Positions 1,975-7,181 of a DNA stretch of 11,754 nt are shown in pieces. The notes beneath the pieces are model-generated. The model saw only the letters and a list, made by a program, of their open reading frames with translations, had not been told where the DNA came from and did no database searches. The position numbers and the translations under genes are program-made. Source of the stretch: a virus (taxonomy: Duplodnaviria > Heunggongvirae > Uroviricota > Caudoviricetes); the IMG/VR virus record IMGVR_UViG_2671181100_000003, positions 1-11,754 of that record; one strand, written 5' to 3'. The first letter of the stretch is position 1. Each line of letters opens with the position of its first letter.

Positions 1975-2337
1975 TTAACGACCTGCTGCGCGGAGTTTTC
2001 CGTCAGGTTCACCGGCAAGAGTCAGCAACTGTCCCTGGTCTTCCTGCAGAATAGTCAGGCGACCACCGCGATTGACATACATCGGCGTTTCGGTGGTGTC
2101 TTCTTCGGAAATTTTCCCGCGGTTAGTCGGGCGAACATATGAGAGTTTGTGTTTGATTTTCACTCGGTTCTCATCAAACGGTTCGATTTCTAGGTTGAGC
2201 GAGACCTTACCTTTGGTTTTCGTGTTCATCACACCGGAAGCGACTTCACTGAGAACTGCGCCGATTTTGGTTTCAAATACGCCGCCGTCCAGCTCCCCGA
2301 TAAATGCCTGCACATCAGTACTGCGTTCGCTAGCCAT
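1975..2337 (-). CDS. yfdP: YfdP-like early protein (120 aa), function unknown
   Basis: ORF-track frame 1975..2655 trimmed to the internal ATG at 2337 (MASERSTDVQ...), which has GAGGAG ~7 nt upstream. The 106 upstream codons are P/G/R-rich read-through of GC-rich non-coding DNA. Confidence 0.65.
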   Translation of the reverse strand: MASERSTDVQAFIGELDGGVFETKIGAVLSEVASGVMNTKTKGKVSLNLEIEPFDENRVKIKHKLSYVRPTNRGKISEEDTTETPMYVNRGGRLTILQEDQGQLLTLAGEPDGKLRAAGR

Positions 2338-2385
2338 TTTGCTGCTCCTCATCATATCGACCCTGCAAGGTCGGTTAGTTTCTCC

Positions 2386-2666
2386 ACAAAACAGAGAAGA
2401 ACACCTGCGGTGACTGCCGCCCGGATGGATTGGGTTATGAGCCCGTCGTCCGGTGATGCTCTTCTCTGTTTTGTAAAAAGGACGGTACCAGCCGGAAGCA
2501 AGGGTACAAGCTGGTACCGCCAAGACTACACACAGCATAAAGTTGTGGTGCCGGGTGCCTCCCGGTGCCTGGCGAAGGTTGCACACCAGGCGGGTGGGTA
2601 TCCACAGAAGGTCGACTGTCAGCCTCAACCTTAACCCGCGTGCGCTGAGCCGCATTCACCACAACG
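2386..2666. other. GC-rich non-coding stretch with nested perfect inverted repeats (candidate structured leader RNA or regulatory element of the leftward early operon)
   Basis: Perfect inverted repeats: 15 bp (2386-2400 ACAAAACAGAGAAGA / 2460-2474), 10 bp (2483-2492 CGGTACCAGC / 2510-2519), 9 bp (2542-2550 GTTGTGGTG / 2657-2665), 7 bp (2575-2581 / 2627-2633), plus short GC hairpins at 2551-2565 and 2567-2591. ORFs open in several frames here encode P/G/R-rich, non-protein-like sequence. Confidence 0.3.
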
Positions 2667-2806
2667 CTAAGGATTCTCTCTGGTTGAAAATACTTAGCTG
2701 TTATGTGCCTGCTTTTAGCCACATCAGGCGAGGTGGACCTAGTTATTCCCCAACAACAAGGATTCGGTTAATCTGGATATCCCCAACAACAATAAGAGTA
2801 TTCAAT

Positions 2807-3322
2807 GTGATCGCTGAATTAACGGCAGCAATGACGGCTATTCGTGAAATCGCCCAGATTGCAAAACTAATGAACGAGGCAAAAACTCAAGCTGAAGTAA
2901 ATGCGGCTATTGGTGAGCTGAACTCAAAGCTTGCGTCTATTCAGCGCGAATGCGTGTCTCTCGTTGAACTGCTGGGCTCTTATCAAGAAATAAATGCTTC
3001 TCTCAAAGCTAAAATTGCAGAATTCGAAAACTTTGAGGCTCAGACGGAAGGCTATATCCTTAACCAACTTGAGTCGGGTACTTTTGTATACTCGAAGGAG
3101 GTAATCGTGAACGGTGACAGCATAACCATGCATCTTTGCCCAAAATGTTTTGGACAAAAGATAGTATCGATACTTCAACCATTCCCGGTTAGCGAAGATG
3201 AGCTTTTTCATAAAAGCAGGTGCCTCCACTGTGAAAATAAGTTTCTGATGAATAAAAATCCAGATTACGTATCGCCTCCATCCATTGAGGAGTTGGCCAG
3301 AAAACTTAACGGCAATCTGTAG
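2807..3322 (+). CDS. Coiled-coil protein with C-terminal CxxC...CxxC zinc-ribbon (accessory gene in the immunity region, function unknown)
   Basis: ORF-track frame 2543..3322 trimmed to GTG 2807 (AAGAG 8 nt upstream) or ATG 2831. The N-terminal ~80 aa are heptad-like and A/E/K/L-rich; the C-terminus carries CPKCF and CLHCENK ~24 aa apart. GC is ~42% against ~52-55% in the replication genes. Convergent with the repressor, own terminator downstream. Confidence 0.55.
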   Translation: MIAELTAAMTAIREIAQIAKLMNEAKTQAEVNAAIGELNSKLASIQRECVSLVELLGSYQEINASLKAKIAEFENFEAQTEGYILNQLESGTFVYSKEVIVNGDSITMHLCPKCFGQKIVSILQPFPVSEDELFHKSRCLHCENKFLMNKNPDYVSPPSIEELARKLNGNL

Positions 3323-3347
3323 ATTGCTACTGTTGTGGATATCCAGA

Positions 3348-3360
3348 TTGTTAAAGAGCG
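3348..3360 (-). promoter_or_regulatory. boxA-like element (minus-strand CGCTCTTTAACAA), candidate nut-type antitermination site
   Basis: Minus-strand 13-mer CGCTCTTTAACAA matches the boxA consensus (rrn boxA TGCTCTTTAACAA; lambda nut boxA CGCTCTTA...) as I recall it. It is flanked by hairpins at 3362-3378 and 3312-3327 and lies downstream of a candidate leftward promoter at 3468-3496. Confidence 0.35.
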
Positions 3361-3361
3361 A

Positions 3362-3384
3362 AGCGTCCTGTAGGGCGCTTTTTT
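3362..3384 (+). terminator. Rho-independent terminator of the coiled-coil/zinc-ribbon gene
   Basis: Stem AGCGTCC / GGGCGCT (7 bp, one G-U) with loop TGTA, followed by TTTTTT at 3379-3384, ~40 nt after the stop codon at 3320-3322. Confidence 0.5.
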
Positions 3385-3465
3385 GTTGCTAACGAATCAT
3401 CCTGGACTTCATATGCCCCAGGCGGCTACTTCGTGGGCGTCCTGCCTGTTCGTTATCTTTGATAT

Positions 3466-3553
3466 AAAATCTAACTTAACTTAGCTATTATGGCAAGAGA
3501 AAACACCAAACTTTTCTTAGTTCGGTGCCTTAGTTAGAGAAGAGAGGTCTTAG
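3466..3553 (-). promoter_or_regulatory. Candidate left operator/promoter (OL/PL-like): leftward promoter flanked by CTTAG half-sites
   Basis: On the minus strand: -35 TTGCCA (plus 3491-3496), 17-bp spacer, -10 TAGATT (plus 3468-3473). CTTAG occurs four times within 3480-3553 (3480, 3516, 3529, 3549), the same pentamer that forms the operators between the repressor and cro. Confidence 0.3.
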
Positions 3554-4176
3554 AGTTCGTATTGAACTCCTTTGACTACACCAATGATAAGGCAATTACC
3601 ATTGATAGGGATGTTGGGATACCGAGGATTTAATGGCACTAAAAACTTTTGAGGGCCATCGATGACTAATTTTTTTACTGTAGCTTCGTTTGTTCCATCA
3701 AGTCGAGCGATGACTATTTTTCCATGACGAGGTTCTGCATCTGGATCTACAATCACTGTTGCGCCTTCTGGTATTGTTGGGAGGCCATTAGGGTTAGTCA
3801 TGGAGTCACCTTTAACCTCTAATGCAAATGAGTTATCACCAACCTTTAATGATGTATCTACCCACTTGTCCACTTCACTAAACACTTCTGCTGCCCTGCA
3901 CTCAGTAAACTGCCCAGCCTGAACCCACGATATTACAGGAACTCTGCGCATGTTTGTGACGAGTTTGCCTTCAAACTCAGCACCATAAAGAATGTAATCT
4001 ATTGACGTATTGAAGAACTTCGCTAATTTCGAAAGTGCCTCCCCACCAGGGGTATTGATGTCTTTCTCCCAGTACCCCACAGCAACGTCGCTTACTCCAC
4101 AAAATTTACCCAATTCTTTCTGGGACGTTCTGGTAACTCTTCTCAGAGCTTTTATACGCTGACCAACCGTTTCCAT
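3550..4176 (-). CDS. Phage repressor, cI/LexA-type (N-terminal HTH + C-terminal S24 autopeptidase domain)
   Basis: 208 aa. N-terminal HTH (QKELGKFCGVSDVAVGYWEKD), candidate Ala-Gly cleavage site (VQAGQF), S24 catalytic motif GDSM and Lys in TVKKL. Divergent from a cro-like gene across an operator region. Confidence 0.9.
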   Translation of the reverse strand: METVGQRIKALRRVTRTSQKELGKFCGVSDVAVGYWEKDINTPGGEALSKLAKFFNTSIDYILYGAEFEGKLVTNMRRVPVISWVQAGQFTECRAAEVFSEVDKWVDTSLKVGDNSFALEVKGDSMTNPNGLPTIPEGATVIVDPDAEPRHGKIVIARLDGTNEATVKKLVIDGPQKFLVPLNPRYPNIPINGNCLIIGVVKGVQYEL

Positions 4177-4195
4177 AGGAGCACCATTTCTTTAA

Positions 4196-4266
4196 TTGCT
4201 AAGTAATCTTAGTTTTTATTGACCAAAGATAGATTTGTAATTAGCATCTAACAAAACTTAGTTTGG
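4196..4266. promoter_or_regulatory. OR-like operator/promoter region between repressor and cro
   Basis: Inverted half-sites CTAAG-TAAT-CTTAG (4199-4212), perfect palindrome AAACTTAGTTT (4254-4264), CTTAGTTT repeated at 4208 and 4257. Rightward promoter candidate -35 TTGACC (4219-4224), 17-bp spacer, -10 TAGCAT (4242-4247), upstream of the cro ATG at 4274. Confidence 0.5.
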
Positions 4267-4273
4267 AGAGCGT

Positions 4274-4474
4274 ATGACAACTGACGATATCGAAAGCTAC
4301 TTCGGCAGTATTGAGAAAGTTGCTGCTTTTTTCGGCATAACAACTGAAGCCGTTTATCAGTGGCGAAACCGTCCGGGCCAGTTAATTCCAAAAGGACGTG
4401 CAGCAGAAGCTGCATATAGAACTTGCGGACGGTTGCCATTTAAACCTGAGCTTTATGAAAAATCTAATGGATAA
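4274..4474 (+). CDS. cro: Cro-type repressor (P22 Cro-like)
   Basis: 66 aa; DIESYFGSIEKVAAFFGITTEAVYQW resembles P22 Cro (DVIDHFGTQRAVAKALGISDAAVSQW). Divergent from the repressor; GGAGAG upstream. Confidence 0.8.
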   Translation: MTTDDIESYFGSIEKVAAFFGITTEAVYQWRNRPGQLIPKGRAAEAAYRTCGRLPFKPELYEKSNG

Positions 4475-6366: not shown

Positions 6367-6855
6367 ATGAGTCTTTTGAATGACGTTCAGAAATTCATTG
6401 AAGCCCATCCGGGGTGTACTTCCGGAGACATTGCGGATGCTTTTGCAGGTTACTCACGACAGCGCGTTCTGCAGTCAGCAAGCAAGTTACGTCAGAGTGG
6501 GCGTGTGGCTCACCGTTGTGAAGGGGATACACGCAGACATTTCCCGCGGCTGACTGAGATACCGCAGGAGCCGGAACCGCAACCAGTTCGTGAATCCAGA
6601 CCTGTGCGCAATTTCTATGTCGGCACTAACGATCCCCGGGTGATTTTGTGCCTGACCCGCCAGGCGGAAGAACTGGAGTCCAGGGGCTTATACCGTCGTG
6701 CTGCAACGGTGTGGATGGCGGCATTCCGTGAAAGCCACTCCCAGCAAGAGCGAAACAATTTTCTTGCGCGTCGTGAGCGGTGTTTACGGAAAAGCAGCAA
6801 GCGCGCTGTATCGGGTGAAGAGTGGTATCTGTCAGGGAATTACGTGGGGGCTTAA
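6367..6855 (+). CDS. Putative transcriptional regulator: N-terminal winged-helix-like region plus PerC-like C-terminal motif
   Basis: ORF-track frame 6361..6855 trimmed to ATG 6367 (GGGGG 5 nt upstream, overlapping the O-like stop). The C-terminal motif AEELESRGLYRRAATVWMAAF resembles the PerC/Pch activator signature as I recall it. The size (162-164 aa) matches my recollection of YfdN. Confidence 0.55.
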   Translation: MSLLNDVQKFIEAHPGCTSGDIADAFAGYSRQRVLQSASKLRQSGRVAHRCEGDTRRHFPRLTEIPQEPEPQPVRESRPVRNFYVGTNDPRVILCLTRQAEELESRGLYRRAATVWMAAFRESHSQQERNNFLARRERCLRKSSKRAVSGEEWYLSGNYVGA

Positions 6856-7181
6856 TGACGACGTTAACTCAATGCCAGCAGCAGGTGCTGGATATGCTGA
6901 TTTCTTATCAGAAAGAACGTGGCTTCCCGCCAACCAATCAGGAGGTGGCAACCATGCTGGGATACCGTTCAGTGAATGCAGCGGTGGAGCATCTTCGCGC
7001 ACTGGAGAAAAAAGGCGTCATCACGATAAAGCGTGGCGTGGCCCGGGGCATCACGCTTCATACCGCGGTGAAGGACGACGACAGCGAGGCGGCCGGGATT
7101 ATCCGCGCACTGCTTGCTGGTGAGGAAAACGCCAGGCTGCGTGCAGCCCACTGGTTACATGAGAGGGGCCTGAAAGTATGA
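6855..7181 (+). CDS. LexA DNA-binding-domain-like protein lacking the S24 peptidase domain
   Basis: ORF-track frame trimmed to ATG 6855 (TAATG overlap with the upstream stop; GGGGG upstream). LTQCQQQVLDMLISYQKERGFPPTNQEVATMLGYRSVNAAVEHLRALEKKGVITIKRGVARGITL aligns by eye with the LexA N-terminus ([65 protein letters not shown]). The 108-aa product stops before any protease domain. Confidence 0.75.
   Translation: MTTLTQCQQQVLDMLISYQKERGFPPTNQEVATMLGYRSVNAAVEHLRALEKKGVITIKRGVARGITLHTAVKDDDSEAAGIIRALLAGEENARLRAAHWLHERGLKV

Follow-up and report, generated by a model that had tools for sequence, protein, structure and literature searches.

CTAAG/CTTAG dyads on both sides of a P22-type repressor gene as the probable OL and OR operators of an E. 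coli prophage

The CTTAG and CTAAG pentamers clustered on both sides of the repressor gene in the DNA analyzed here, an 11,754-bp window from the early region of an SfV/e14/mEp460-like lambdoid prophage of E. coli, very probably mark the OL and OR operators of a P22-type prophage repressor, which together would form the immunity switch of this prophage. The prophage is integrated at tRNA-Thr, beside proA, and its immunity type was found in 513 of 5,426 complete E. coli genomes (~ 9%) as well as in phages mEp460, LLS, Kati, and others. The elements of a lambdoid switch can be recognized from the sequence, namely a predicted repressor of the HTH and S24 kind, a divergent cro gene, putative OR dyads over divergent promoters, and a putative OL over a leftward promoter. 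An earlier note on this DNA had likened the pentamers between repressor and cro to an OR and those past the 3′ end of the repressor gene, where it saw a leftward promoter candidate, to an OL, and layout, conservation, and specificity all agree with that reading. Reading the layout as a textbook lambdoid immunity switch with its own DNA specificity is almost certainly correct but ordinary, and the immunity specificity is an uncharacterised one of a known kind. No description of these sites was found in the literature searched for mEp460, SfV, and ymfK operators or for the leader RNA described below.

The immunity repressor gene (3550..4176, minus strand) encodes 208 aa with an N-terminal HTH (Pfam HTH_3, E 1.3e-9) and a C-terminal S24 autopeptidase (Pfam Peptidase_S24, E 1.8e-27) whose domain residues are Ala87-Gly88, Ser125, and Lys168; VQAG, GDSM, and KKL are all present when the protein is aligned to the lambda CI C-terminal domain and P22 C2. 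The closest solved structure for the N-terminal domain is that of P22 C2, to which the whole repressor is 47% identical over 205 aa, and the closest for the C-terminal domain is the lambda CI C-terminal domain (E 5e-28). In RefSeq, the protein is labeled 'LexA family protein'. Divergent from it lies a cro gene of 66 aa (4274..4474, plus strand; Pfam P22_Cro, E 4.4e-11), labeled 'Cro/CI family transcriptional regulator'.

A motif search with a weight matrix, as the earlier note had suggested, singled out four positions in the window at 19-27 bits. The matrix was built only from the sites of homologues and then scored on the window; since the homologue sites were picked by likeness to the window pattern, its core columns are partly circular. 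Of the 42 sites, 36 have A, T, and A, respectively, at positions 1 and 18 in the flanks and 10 in the spacer, which had no part in site selection, and 41 have C at position 3. The next independent match, at 6.2 bits, is the predicted OR2, and no position of the window exceeds 5.3 bits except in the two intergenic stretches on either side of the repressor gene. Conservation was followed across ~ 20 homologous loci, mostly from different Enterobacterales species, with repressors 64-90% identical. In nearly all of these, both OR sites lie 49 bp apart and at a fixed distance from the repressor start, and most keep OL1, the PL −35, and OL2, with drifting spacers and flanks. Rouxiella and a Serratia MAG have no OL behind the repressor gene, indicating that members of the family do not all share the OL arrangement. 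Among 81 near-identical E. coli loci, variable columns numbered 2 of 56 in the operator cores versus 40 of 136 in the other intergenic positions (Fisher P 3e-5).

On the right side, the putative OR1 (4246-4263, ATCTAACAAAACTTAGTT, core 4248-4261; 25.3 bits) covers the PR start region, and its offset is unchanged in nearly every one of the ~ 20 homologous loci. PR itself, like PL a conserved promoter of predicted sigma-70 type, was located by promoter scan on the plus strand (4219..4247), with the −35 TTGACC at 4219-4224, a 17-bp spacer, and the −10 TAGCAT at 4242-4247; the first base of OR1 is the penultimate base of the −10 hexamer, so that the site overlaps its last two bases. Transcription from PR is predicted to start at ~ 4254. 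In most homologues the −10 is TAATAT, and both PR hexamers form conserved blocks in the cross-species alignment. The putative OR3 (4197-4214, TGCTAAGTAATCTTAGTT, core 4199-4212; 21.8 bits) has perfect half-sites with 0 mismatches, is invariant in the 81 E. coli-type loci, and is kept in nearly all homologues. A third, weak OR site, missing from the earlier note, probably exists at 4222-4239 (ACCAAAGATAGATTTGTA), assigned by position only as an OR2-type operator. It overlaps the PR −35 and spacer, is the best non-overlapping matrix match after the four strong sites, and is partly conserved across homologues and variable within E. coli. The resulting spacing is 25 bp from OR3 to OR2 and 24 bp from OR2 to OR1. 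A candidate PRM on the minus strand (4206..4234) would have its −10, TAAGAT (4211-4206), in OR3 and a poor −35, ATCTAT (4234-4229), in OR2; it is assigned purely by analogy to P22, in whose annotated PRM a TAAGAT hexamer is located identically within OR3. The two dyads that had been claimed between repressor and cro fared differently: the one at 4199-4212 stands, whereas 4254-4264 is only a local palindrome, AAACT-T-AGTTT, around the right half-site of OR1, and the true second dyad is 4248-4261 (CTAACAAAACTTAG).

On the left side, the leftward promoter proposed at 3496-3468 proved real as a consensus match. The promoter scan placed PL on the minus strand (3468..3496), with the −35 TTGCCA at 3496-3491, a 17-bp spacer, and the −10 TAGATT at 3473-3468; this hexamer, like the PR −10, is a moderate match to consensus. 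Transcription from PL is predicted to start at ~ 3461. Both PL hexamers are conserved across species (the −35 being TTGACC in most), and PL occupies the same position as the annotated PL of P22 and the evident PL of SfV. The putative OL1 (3469-3486, ATCTAACTTAACTTAGCT, core 3471-3484) overlaps the PL −10 and spacer and, at 27.0 bits, is the top match of the window. Its 14-bp core is identical in the window, LLS, and nine other loci (Enterobacter, Kosakonia, Kluyvera, Serratia sp. Ag1, Rahnella), and it is invariant in the 81 E. coli-type loci. The putative OL2 (3505-3522, ACCAAACTTTTCTTAGTT, core 3507-3520; 19.3 bits) lies upstream of the PL −35, with conserved half-sites around a 4-bp spacer that differs between species (TTTT, TAAA, TTTA); its left half is CAAAC, which deviates from CTAAG at a base other than the first. 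The two cores are 36 bp apart (~ 3.4 helical turns), and OL has two good sites, not three.

This arrangement is that of P22 to within a base pair. The window repressor shares the two-domain build of P22 C2, a type that includes the cI of phage 21, and the cro genes belong to the same Pfam family. Both systems have 18-bp operators with 5-bp half-sites 4 bp apart. Counted from the OL1 core, the −10 is at −3 and the −35 at +20 in both, with OL2 at +35 in P22 and +36 in the window; counted from the PR −35, OR3 is at −20 and OR2 at +5 in both, with OR1 at +28 and +29, respectively. All operator and promoter offsets, including that of cro, match annotated P22 within 1 bp, and on this comparison the window has the P22 architecture. 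In both, OL directly abuts the 3′ end of the repressor gene, and the −10 TAAGAT of PRM falls inside OR3. The window differs in having only two clear OL sites, in having no homologue of gene 24 (N) after PL, and in the distance from OR3 to the repressor ATG, which is 21 bp versus 2 bp in P22, indicating that the repressor mRNA is not leaderless.

We infer actual binding, occupancy order, cooperativity, PRM, and any OL–OR loop in the following scheme. A repressor dimer would bind the 18-bp pseudo-palindromes ATCTAA(G/C)-N4-CTTAGNT. OR1 and the weak OR2 would cover PR, OR3 would cover the −10 of PRM, the repressor's own promoter, and OL1 would cover the −10 and spacer of PL, with OL2 just upstream of the PL −35. 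In the lysogen, repressor at OR1/OR2 and OL1/OL2 would keep cro, the rightward genes, and the leftward early operon off. Repressor bound at OR2 would probably aid PRM, and at high concentration occupation of OR3 would shut PRM off. Upon DNA damage, RecA-stimulated self-cleavage at Ala87-Gly88 would part the DNA-binding domain from the dimerisation domain and both promoters would fire, after which Cro would turn down PRM and the early promoters through the same sites.

Whether the two operators would also be joined by a loop is a separate matter. The window shares with lambda a divergent repressor and cro, a tripartite OR with 24-25 bp spacing over PR and PRM, and second operators at PL, and its C-terminal domain is homologous to lambda CI residues 101-229, including the Ala-Gly site and the Ser/Lys dyad; the N-terminal domain and the operator sequence of lambda, in contrast, are unrelated to those of the window. 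The OL–OR separation, given as ~ 700 bp in the earlier note, measures 692-777 bp centre to centre. This is ~ 0.75 kb compared to ~ 2.3 kb in lambda, the distance being shorter because there are no rex genes, and an OL abutting the repressor gene is the arrangement of the P22/434/21 type. Looping between OL and OR, as the earlier note had predicted, is plausible by extrapolation from lambda. It stands at close to an even chance, in our estimate, that the sites are true operators with OL and OR acting independently on their own promoters, with no repressor-mediated loop. The sequence contains nothing that demands a loop, the two strong sites of OL include no OL3-type partner for OR3, the 36 bp between OL1 and OL2 resembles the 35 bp of P22 rather than the 24 bp of lambda, and Rouxiella-type relatives have no OL at all behind the repressor gene. 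Lambda CI has been shown to form such loops, whereas P22 C2 is not known to do so. Independent action is harder to square with a C-terminal domain clearly homologous to the lambda CI domain that mediates tetramer and octamer contacts (E 5e-28), with a favourable looping distance of 0.7-0.8 kb between the two sets of sites, and with conserved paired sites on both sides, which would permit an octamer.

With or without a loop, the OL assignment given above takes in two of the four pentamers past the 3′ end of the repressor gene. All four (3480-3553) had been taken as operator half-sites. Two hold up, as the right halves of the near-dyads 3471-3484 (CTAACTTAACTTAG) and 3507-3520 (CAAACTTTTCTTAG); the other two, at 3529-3533 and 3549-3553, are unpartnered, unscored, and not conserved, and are probably not parts of operators. 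That all four belong to a single four-site operator array, as the wording of the earlier note implies, seems very unlikely. Four pentamers do lie within 74 bp, and LLS and two Enterobacter loci likewise carry a CTTAG shortly past OL2. Yet a partner half-site 9 bp upstream is missing from both solitary pentamers, and neither gains any score from the matrix. Both are changed in mEp460 and in most species, and both vary within E. coli, where no other part of the region is as polymorphic as theirs; moreover, in LLS the pentamer stands 1 bp out of register with OL2, and the pentamer at 3549-3553 overlaps the repressor stop codon and is created by it.

The specificity of the sites points to the repressor as the protein that would bind them. 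The published P22 operator consensus is ATTTAAGATATCTTAAAT, and V33 of P22 C2 packs against the methyl groups of TTAA (PMC5175364). This valine is kept in the window repressor as V31, within the recognition helix S29-D-V-A-V-G-Y35, which differs from that of P22 C2 by N32D, I35V, S36G, and Q37Y. In the operators, the P22 half-site TTAAG is replaced by CTAAG in every strong site (position 3 of ATTTAAG being C), and the first base is C instead of T in 7 of the 8 half-sites that make up the four strong sites; the window sites do not conform to the imm P22 consensus ATTTAAG-N4-CTTAAAT, with its half-site TTAAG. Across the family, the half-site changes with the recognition helix (SDVAVGYWEK with CTAAG, SHVAISQWEK with TTAAG, NRVTVTGWEK with TGTAGG) while the architecture is the same throughout. 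Because the strong sites carry CTAAG instead of TTAAG and the helix differs at four residues, immunity is predicted to differ from that of P22 and 21, and the window phage should be heteroimmune to both. We consider it scarcely probable that the motifs are bound mainly by another protein, Cro alone or the second LexA-family regulator encoded at 6822-7181, with the real sites of the repressor elsewhere. The binding protein cannot be told from sequence, Cro (P22_Cro family) is expected to share the sites, and the prophage encodes further HTH proteins. Against these points stand the tracking of half-site with repressor helix, the distance from site to repressor start, which is fixed in nearly all homologues, and a layout equal to that of the P22 sites annotated as bound by C2; nor do the two intergenic stretches contain any other repeated dyad.

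The placement of the pentamers, not their number, is what is unusual. CTTAG/CTAAG occurs 14 times in the window versus 17.8 expected, and half of these (7 of 14, with starts at 3480, 3516, 3529, 3549, 4199, 4208, and 4257) fall in the two intergenic stretches around the repressor gene (3323-3549 and 4177-4273), which make up 324 bp or 2.8% of the window. This clustering has a binomial P of 3.5e-8, and a P of 2e-4 under a Markov model trained on the same AT-rich stretches. Five of the seven are parts of four 18-bp near-palindromes with the consensus ATCTAA(G/C)-N4-CTTAGNT. The dyad CTAAG-N4-CTTAG with up to 1 mismatch gave 3 matches compared to 0.27 expected, and with up to 2 mismatches gave 4 matches, all in the two repressor-flanking stretches, where there is no other repeated dyad. 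Functionless clustering as a chance product of AT-rich intergenic DNA, which is hardly credible and already refuted to the extent that sequence can decide, would fit an overall pentamer count and a 2-mismatch dyad count that do not exceed expectation for the whole window, but not the placement statistics, the margin of > 13 bits by which the four sites outscore all other positions, or the conservation of the sites across many species with depleted polymorphism. A further pentamer pair, at 2667-2671 and 2693-2697, was rejected as an operator, having 21-bp spacing and 0.1 bits and lying inside an STnc100-like RNA.

The immunity-specific DNA stops just left of OL1 and PL, where a leader common to phages of other immunities begins. 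SfV, with its cI, and e14, with YmfK, have the same backbone as the window (yfdP/Q/R-type early-left genes, ymfL, and a thrW-type integrase) and PL in the same place, followed at once by the same leader RNA. The stretch separating cI from cro in SfV is annotated as a 'putative operator region'; SfV differs from the window in its repressor and operators, which are GGTAC-type dyads, and in having a terminator between cI and OL.

Downstream of PL and on the same strand, the transcript carries this conserved leader and a boxA. The leader is a predicted structured RNA of 72 nt (3386..3457, minus strand) at the 5′ end of the PL transcript, and it marks where the immunity-specific DNA has its left edge. 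Its core is almost invariant, and two helices are supported by covariation. Its structure emerged only from comparative alignment, the minimum free energy fold of the window sequence alone being no better than shuffles (z = −0.18). The covariance model scored 62-100 bits in 97 copies, and at least 120 viral contigs carry the leader, always as the first part of the early-left transcript and together with dozens of unrelated repressor and operator types; it is also present in e14 of E. coli K-12, upstream of ymfJ, at 1,202,107-1,202,179 of NC_000913.3. Rfam at gathering thresholds gave nothing in the whole window, and with E up to 5 in 2300-3500 gave a near-threshold STnc100 and two weak matches, none at the operators or the leader. 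The covariance model found no second, PR-side copy of the leader in the window.

Here the leader precedes a perfect boxA (CGCTCTTTAACAA; 3348..3360, minus strand), just past a hairpin at 3381-3360, and > 1 kb of untranslated RNA. This boxA is the sole match in the window even with 2 mismatches, which leaves none on the PR side, and its core recurs after the leader in loci of Kluyvera, Kosakonia, and Xenorhabdus. Compared with a nut site, boxA is present, the hairpin precedes rather than follows it, and there is no N-like ORF; in one Xenorhabdus locus, the leader is accompanied by a classical boxA-boxB nut site. When the first ORF downstream of the leader was compared in 125 loci, 47 unrelated clusters resulted, and no conserved protein that might be an N analogue was found encoded at this place. 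The SfV group, which is among the leader carriers, has been reported to be without an N protein. The leader resembles putL of HK022 in its length of ~ 70 nt, its start within the first few nt of the PL transcript, its highly conserved core with helices, and its occurrence in lambdoid phages reported to be without N (PMC3851460; PMC9378689), and differs in helix plan, having a closing helix P1 and internal hairpins. An HK022-type put RNA was rejected as its identity, the covariance model giving no match to putL or putR in the HK022 PL/PR region with E up to 1, and a CAGGAUGA string common to the leader and HK022 put, spotted by eye, is not evidence. As a tentative and rather doubtful proposal, the leader could be a new class of cis-acting RNA for processive antitermination or against Rho that would serve the purpose of HK022 put in a different way. 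This side observation could matter more than the operators. If the proposal is true, the operators would be the switch for an RNA-based antitermination module. The leader itself, widespread, not in Rfam, and present in K-12 e14, could bear on early-terminator read-through in N-less lambdoid phages.

For the operators themselves the value is modest. A predicted operator consensus, promoters, and module boundaries are now defined for an immunity type carried by ~ 9% of complete E. coli genomes, and heteroimmunity and superinfection exclusion among these prophages become predictable. The switch would also offer a naturally occurring counterpart, of different specificity, to the well-studied complex of P22 C2 with its operator, with 1 base per half-site and 4 recognition-helix residues changed and the valine of the 'valine cleft' retained.

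The 208-aa repressor carries HTH_3 and Peptidase_S24 domains and is 47% identical to P22 C2 over its full length; its Ala-Gly cleavage site and Ser/Lys dyad are both present. The nearest solved structure to its N-terminal 65 residues is the P22 C2 N-terminal domain and that to its C-terminal part is the lambda CI C-terminal domain. Among phage repressors, P22, phage 21 and their relatives supply the next-closest (47-49%). The domains show a self-cleaving repressor of the C2/CI type and also a Cro, the divergent 66-aa ORF being a member of the P22_Cro family. The ORF beyond cro is of the CII (CP76) type.

The window contains 14 copies of the pentamer CTTAG or its complement, a total not above chance, and 7 of these lie within the 324 bp of intergenic DNA flanking the repressor gene (binomial P 3.5e-8; P 2e-4 under a Markov model trained on the same AT-rich intergenic stretches), bearing out the earlier note's claim that such half-sites cluster on both sides of this gene. 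The dyad CTAAG-N4-CTTAG was found three times with at most one mismatch, versus 0.27 expected, and four times with at most two, at 3471-3484, 3507-3520, 4199-4212 and 4248-4261. Between the repressor and cro genes, the earlier note's dyad at 4199-4212 stands, and the one it set at 4254-4264 belongs at 4248-4261, because the CTTAG at 4257 pairs with CTAAC at 4248. Two of the four pentamers it counted in 3480-3553 fall within the dyads at 3471-3484 and 3507-3520, and no partner half-site was found for those at 3529 and 3549. When 81 E. coli-type loci from IMG/VR and mEp460 were compared, the stretch with these two solitary pentamers was the most polymorphic part, and variable columns numbered 2/56 in the operator core versus 40/136 in other intergenic DNA (Fisher P 3e-5).

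Conservation was followed further in some 20 homologous loci with repressors 64-90% identical. Most represent separate species of Enterobacterales, the genera being Enterobacter, Kosakonia, Kluyvera, Serratia, Rahnella, Yersinia, Rouxiella, Providencia and Proteus. In nearly all of them a dyad, perfect or almost so, lies ~24 bp from the repressor start and is followed by another 49 bp beyond; the first is absent from the Serratia MAG locus L017. Behind the repressor gene, most loci have an invariant AAATCTAACTTAACTTAG, then a -35 element GGTCAA (TTGACC on the minus strand) and then a second dyad, its half-sites kept and its 4-bp spacer variable across species. A position matrix was built from 42 distinct homologue sites, the window excluded; its core columns are partly circular because the sites were picked by similarity to the pattern. 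The matrix search that the earlier note had suggested, run with these homologue sites, returned OL1 (3469-3486, 27.0 bits), OR1 (4246-4263, 25.3 bits), OR3 (4197-4214, 21.8 bits) and OL2 (3505-3522, 19.3 bits), followed as the next independent match by a candidate OR2 (4222-4239, 6.2 bits), with no score above 5.3 bits outside the two intergenic stretches. The unselected positions 1, 18 and 10 are A, T and A in 36/42 sites, and therefore the predicted operator is an 18-mer, ATCTAA(G/C)-T-W-A-W-CTTAGNT. In L017 (2558-2625) and a Rouxiella-like MAG locus (L026:2634-2700), both in window-like orientation, OL is absent behind the repressor gene. Instead, ~480 bp rightward of OR, each has two further perfect CTAAG-N4-CTTAG dyads spaced 49 bp apart as in OR, which suggests a rearranged or duplicated operator-promoter module.

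An independent promoter scan returned PL at 3496-3468 (minus strand; TTGCCA-17-TAGATT) and PR at 4219-4247 (plus strand; TTGACC-17-TAGCAT), two of only four promoter-like matches in 2.4 kb, and in the species alignment each pair of hexamers forms conserved blocks; as a consensus match, the leftward promoter candidate that had been noticed past the repressor 3′ end holds. The layout was compared with that of P22, whose record annotates PL, OL1-3, PRM, PR and OR1-3 and whose own sites were located by the P22 consensus. Measured from the start of the OL1 core, the PL -10 lies at -3 and the -35 at +20 in both phages, and the OL2 core at +35 in P22 and +36 in the window. From the start of the PR -35, the OR3 core lies at -20 and the OR2 core at +5 in both, the OR1 core at +28 in P22 and +29 in the window, and the cro ATG at +58 and +55, respectively. 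The annotated P22 PRM -10, TAAGAT, lies inside OR3, and the same hexamer is present in the window at 4211-4206. The predicted sites overlap conserved promoters and are of the expected kind, number and position.

By analogy with P22 and lambda, repressor dimers on OR1/OR2 and OL1/OL2 would block PR and PL, repressor bound at OR2 would probably help PRM, and OR3 would mediate negative autoregulation; Cro would use the same sites, and RecA-stimulated repressor cleavage would induce the prophage. We give looping between OL and OR, which is possible, roughly an even chance. The two lie 692-777 bp apart, and the repressor's C-terminal part has homology to that of lambda CI. Nothing specific supports a loop: OL consists of two sites, with 36 bp between them, and is absent behind the repressor gene in some relatives.

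The window is found in E. coli chromosomes with 100% identity and, in strain 1283, is part of a prophage integrated beside tRNA-Thr and proA. The RefSeq order runs from the integrase and yfdT/R/Q/P-type early-left genes through a hypothetical gene (WP_000559916.1; 2807-3322, plus), the 'LexA family protein' repressor (3550-4176, minus) and the 'Cro/CI family' gene (4274-4474, plus) to ymfL, replication genes, RusA, KilA-N, DUF968 and the Q antiterminator. The same 1.2 kb is found in the isolated phages vB_EcoM-689R6, vB_EcoS-569R4 and Kati (99%), mEp460_4F5 (95%) and LLS (77%), and, of 5,426 complete E. coli genomes, 513 have 80% or more of it. The hypothetical gene is an insertion separating PL from the early-left genes. 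It converges on PL, has its own terminator and no Pfam domain in the 163-aa portion scanned, and resembles a moron expressed in lysogens; transcription from PL would cross it antisense. A second, short 'LexA family transcriptional regulator' (6822-7181, plus; 119 aa by ORF listing) lies in the rightward operon beside a PerC-family gene and has only an N-terminal LexA-like DNA-binding domain.

Immunity-specific DNA ends just left of OL1/PL. A few nucleotides past the predicted PL start begins a 72-nt structured leader RNA (3457-3386, minus), whose DNA is common to SfV, SfII, SfIV, ST64B, phiNP and Yersinia, Pantoea and Klebsiella phages with other immunities. Its structure consists of the closing helix P1, an invariant small hairpin and the P3 hairpin, with compensatory changes in 5/6 pairs of P1 and 4/5 of P3 among 99 copies aligned to a covariance model, and 95% of alignment cells are paired versus 22-42% with partners slid. 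A scan for its almost invariant core, AGGCAGGANGCCCAYGNAGTAGCYGC, found at least 120 IMG/VR contigs; among those listed, each has a promoter and its own differing dyads directly upstream, and the repressors are of many types, some of them short and non-S24. Conservation does not extend to the first downstream ORF (47 clusters among 125 loci), no Rfam family matches the leader, and its covariance model has no match to HK022 put. The SfV group is reported to be without N (PMC3851460). The leader may act in antitermination or against Rho, in stability or processing, or as a binding site for a protein. Two IMG/VR loci (L256:3632-3690 and L270:978-1036) have a second, 5′-truncated copy (43 bits) ~670 nt downstream of the full one on the same strand. 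The cryptic prophage e14 of E. coli K-12 also carries the leader, between ymfK (repressor) and ymfJ (NC_000913.3 1,202,107-1,202,179, minus; L287:6108-6180; 80.6 bits), where no RNA feature is annotated, and this copy offers a convenient experimental system.

Directly past a GC-rich hairpin (3381-3360), which doubles as the plus-strand terminator of the converging gene, lies a perfect boxA consensus CGCTCTTTAACAA (3360-3348, minus), an order like that of rrn leaders and unlike lambda nut. The same boxA core follows the leader in several distant loci (Kluyvera, Kosakonia and Xenorhabdus), and one Xenorhabdus locus has a classical boxA-boxB there; no boxA was found on the PR side. Further along the PL operon is a 490-bp GC-rich non-coding stretch (2341-2830), common to SfV, SfII, SfIV, ST64B, mEp460 and Stx2c phages, and the PL transcript would therefore run for more than 1 kb without a leftward ORF ahead of the yfdP-like gene. 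Within this stretch are an STnc100-like RNA (2472-2695, minus; E 8e-8) that at 43.4 bits is below the Rfam gathering score of 47, and a weak DicF-like match (2480-2534).

The P22 consensus is ATTTAAGATATCTTAAAT, and V33 packs among the four T methyl groups of TTAA (PMC5175364). Unlike P22, the window sites have C at consensus position 3, and the recognition helix reads S-D-V-A-V-G-Y rather than S-N-V-A-I-S-Q, with the valine retained. Distant relatives of the same architecture pair SHVAISQWEK with TTAAG (Xenorhabdus, Photorhabdus) and NRVTVTGWEK with TGTAGG/CCTACA (Morganella, Proteus), and an Edwardsiella relative has another helix and the half-site TTTAAA. Across loci L025-L038, the OR/OL architecture is constant and the half-site (CTAAG, TTAAG, TGTAGG or TTTAAA) varies with the helix. 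Such covariation of putative half-site and helix is the behaviour expected of the repressor's operators. No description of these operators was found in the literature. Within the P22 C2-type family the immunity switch has a new, uncharacterised specificity and is otherwise textbook; the half-site and helix variants across the wider repressor family form a natural series for the evolution of HTH specificity.
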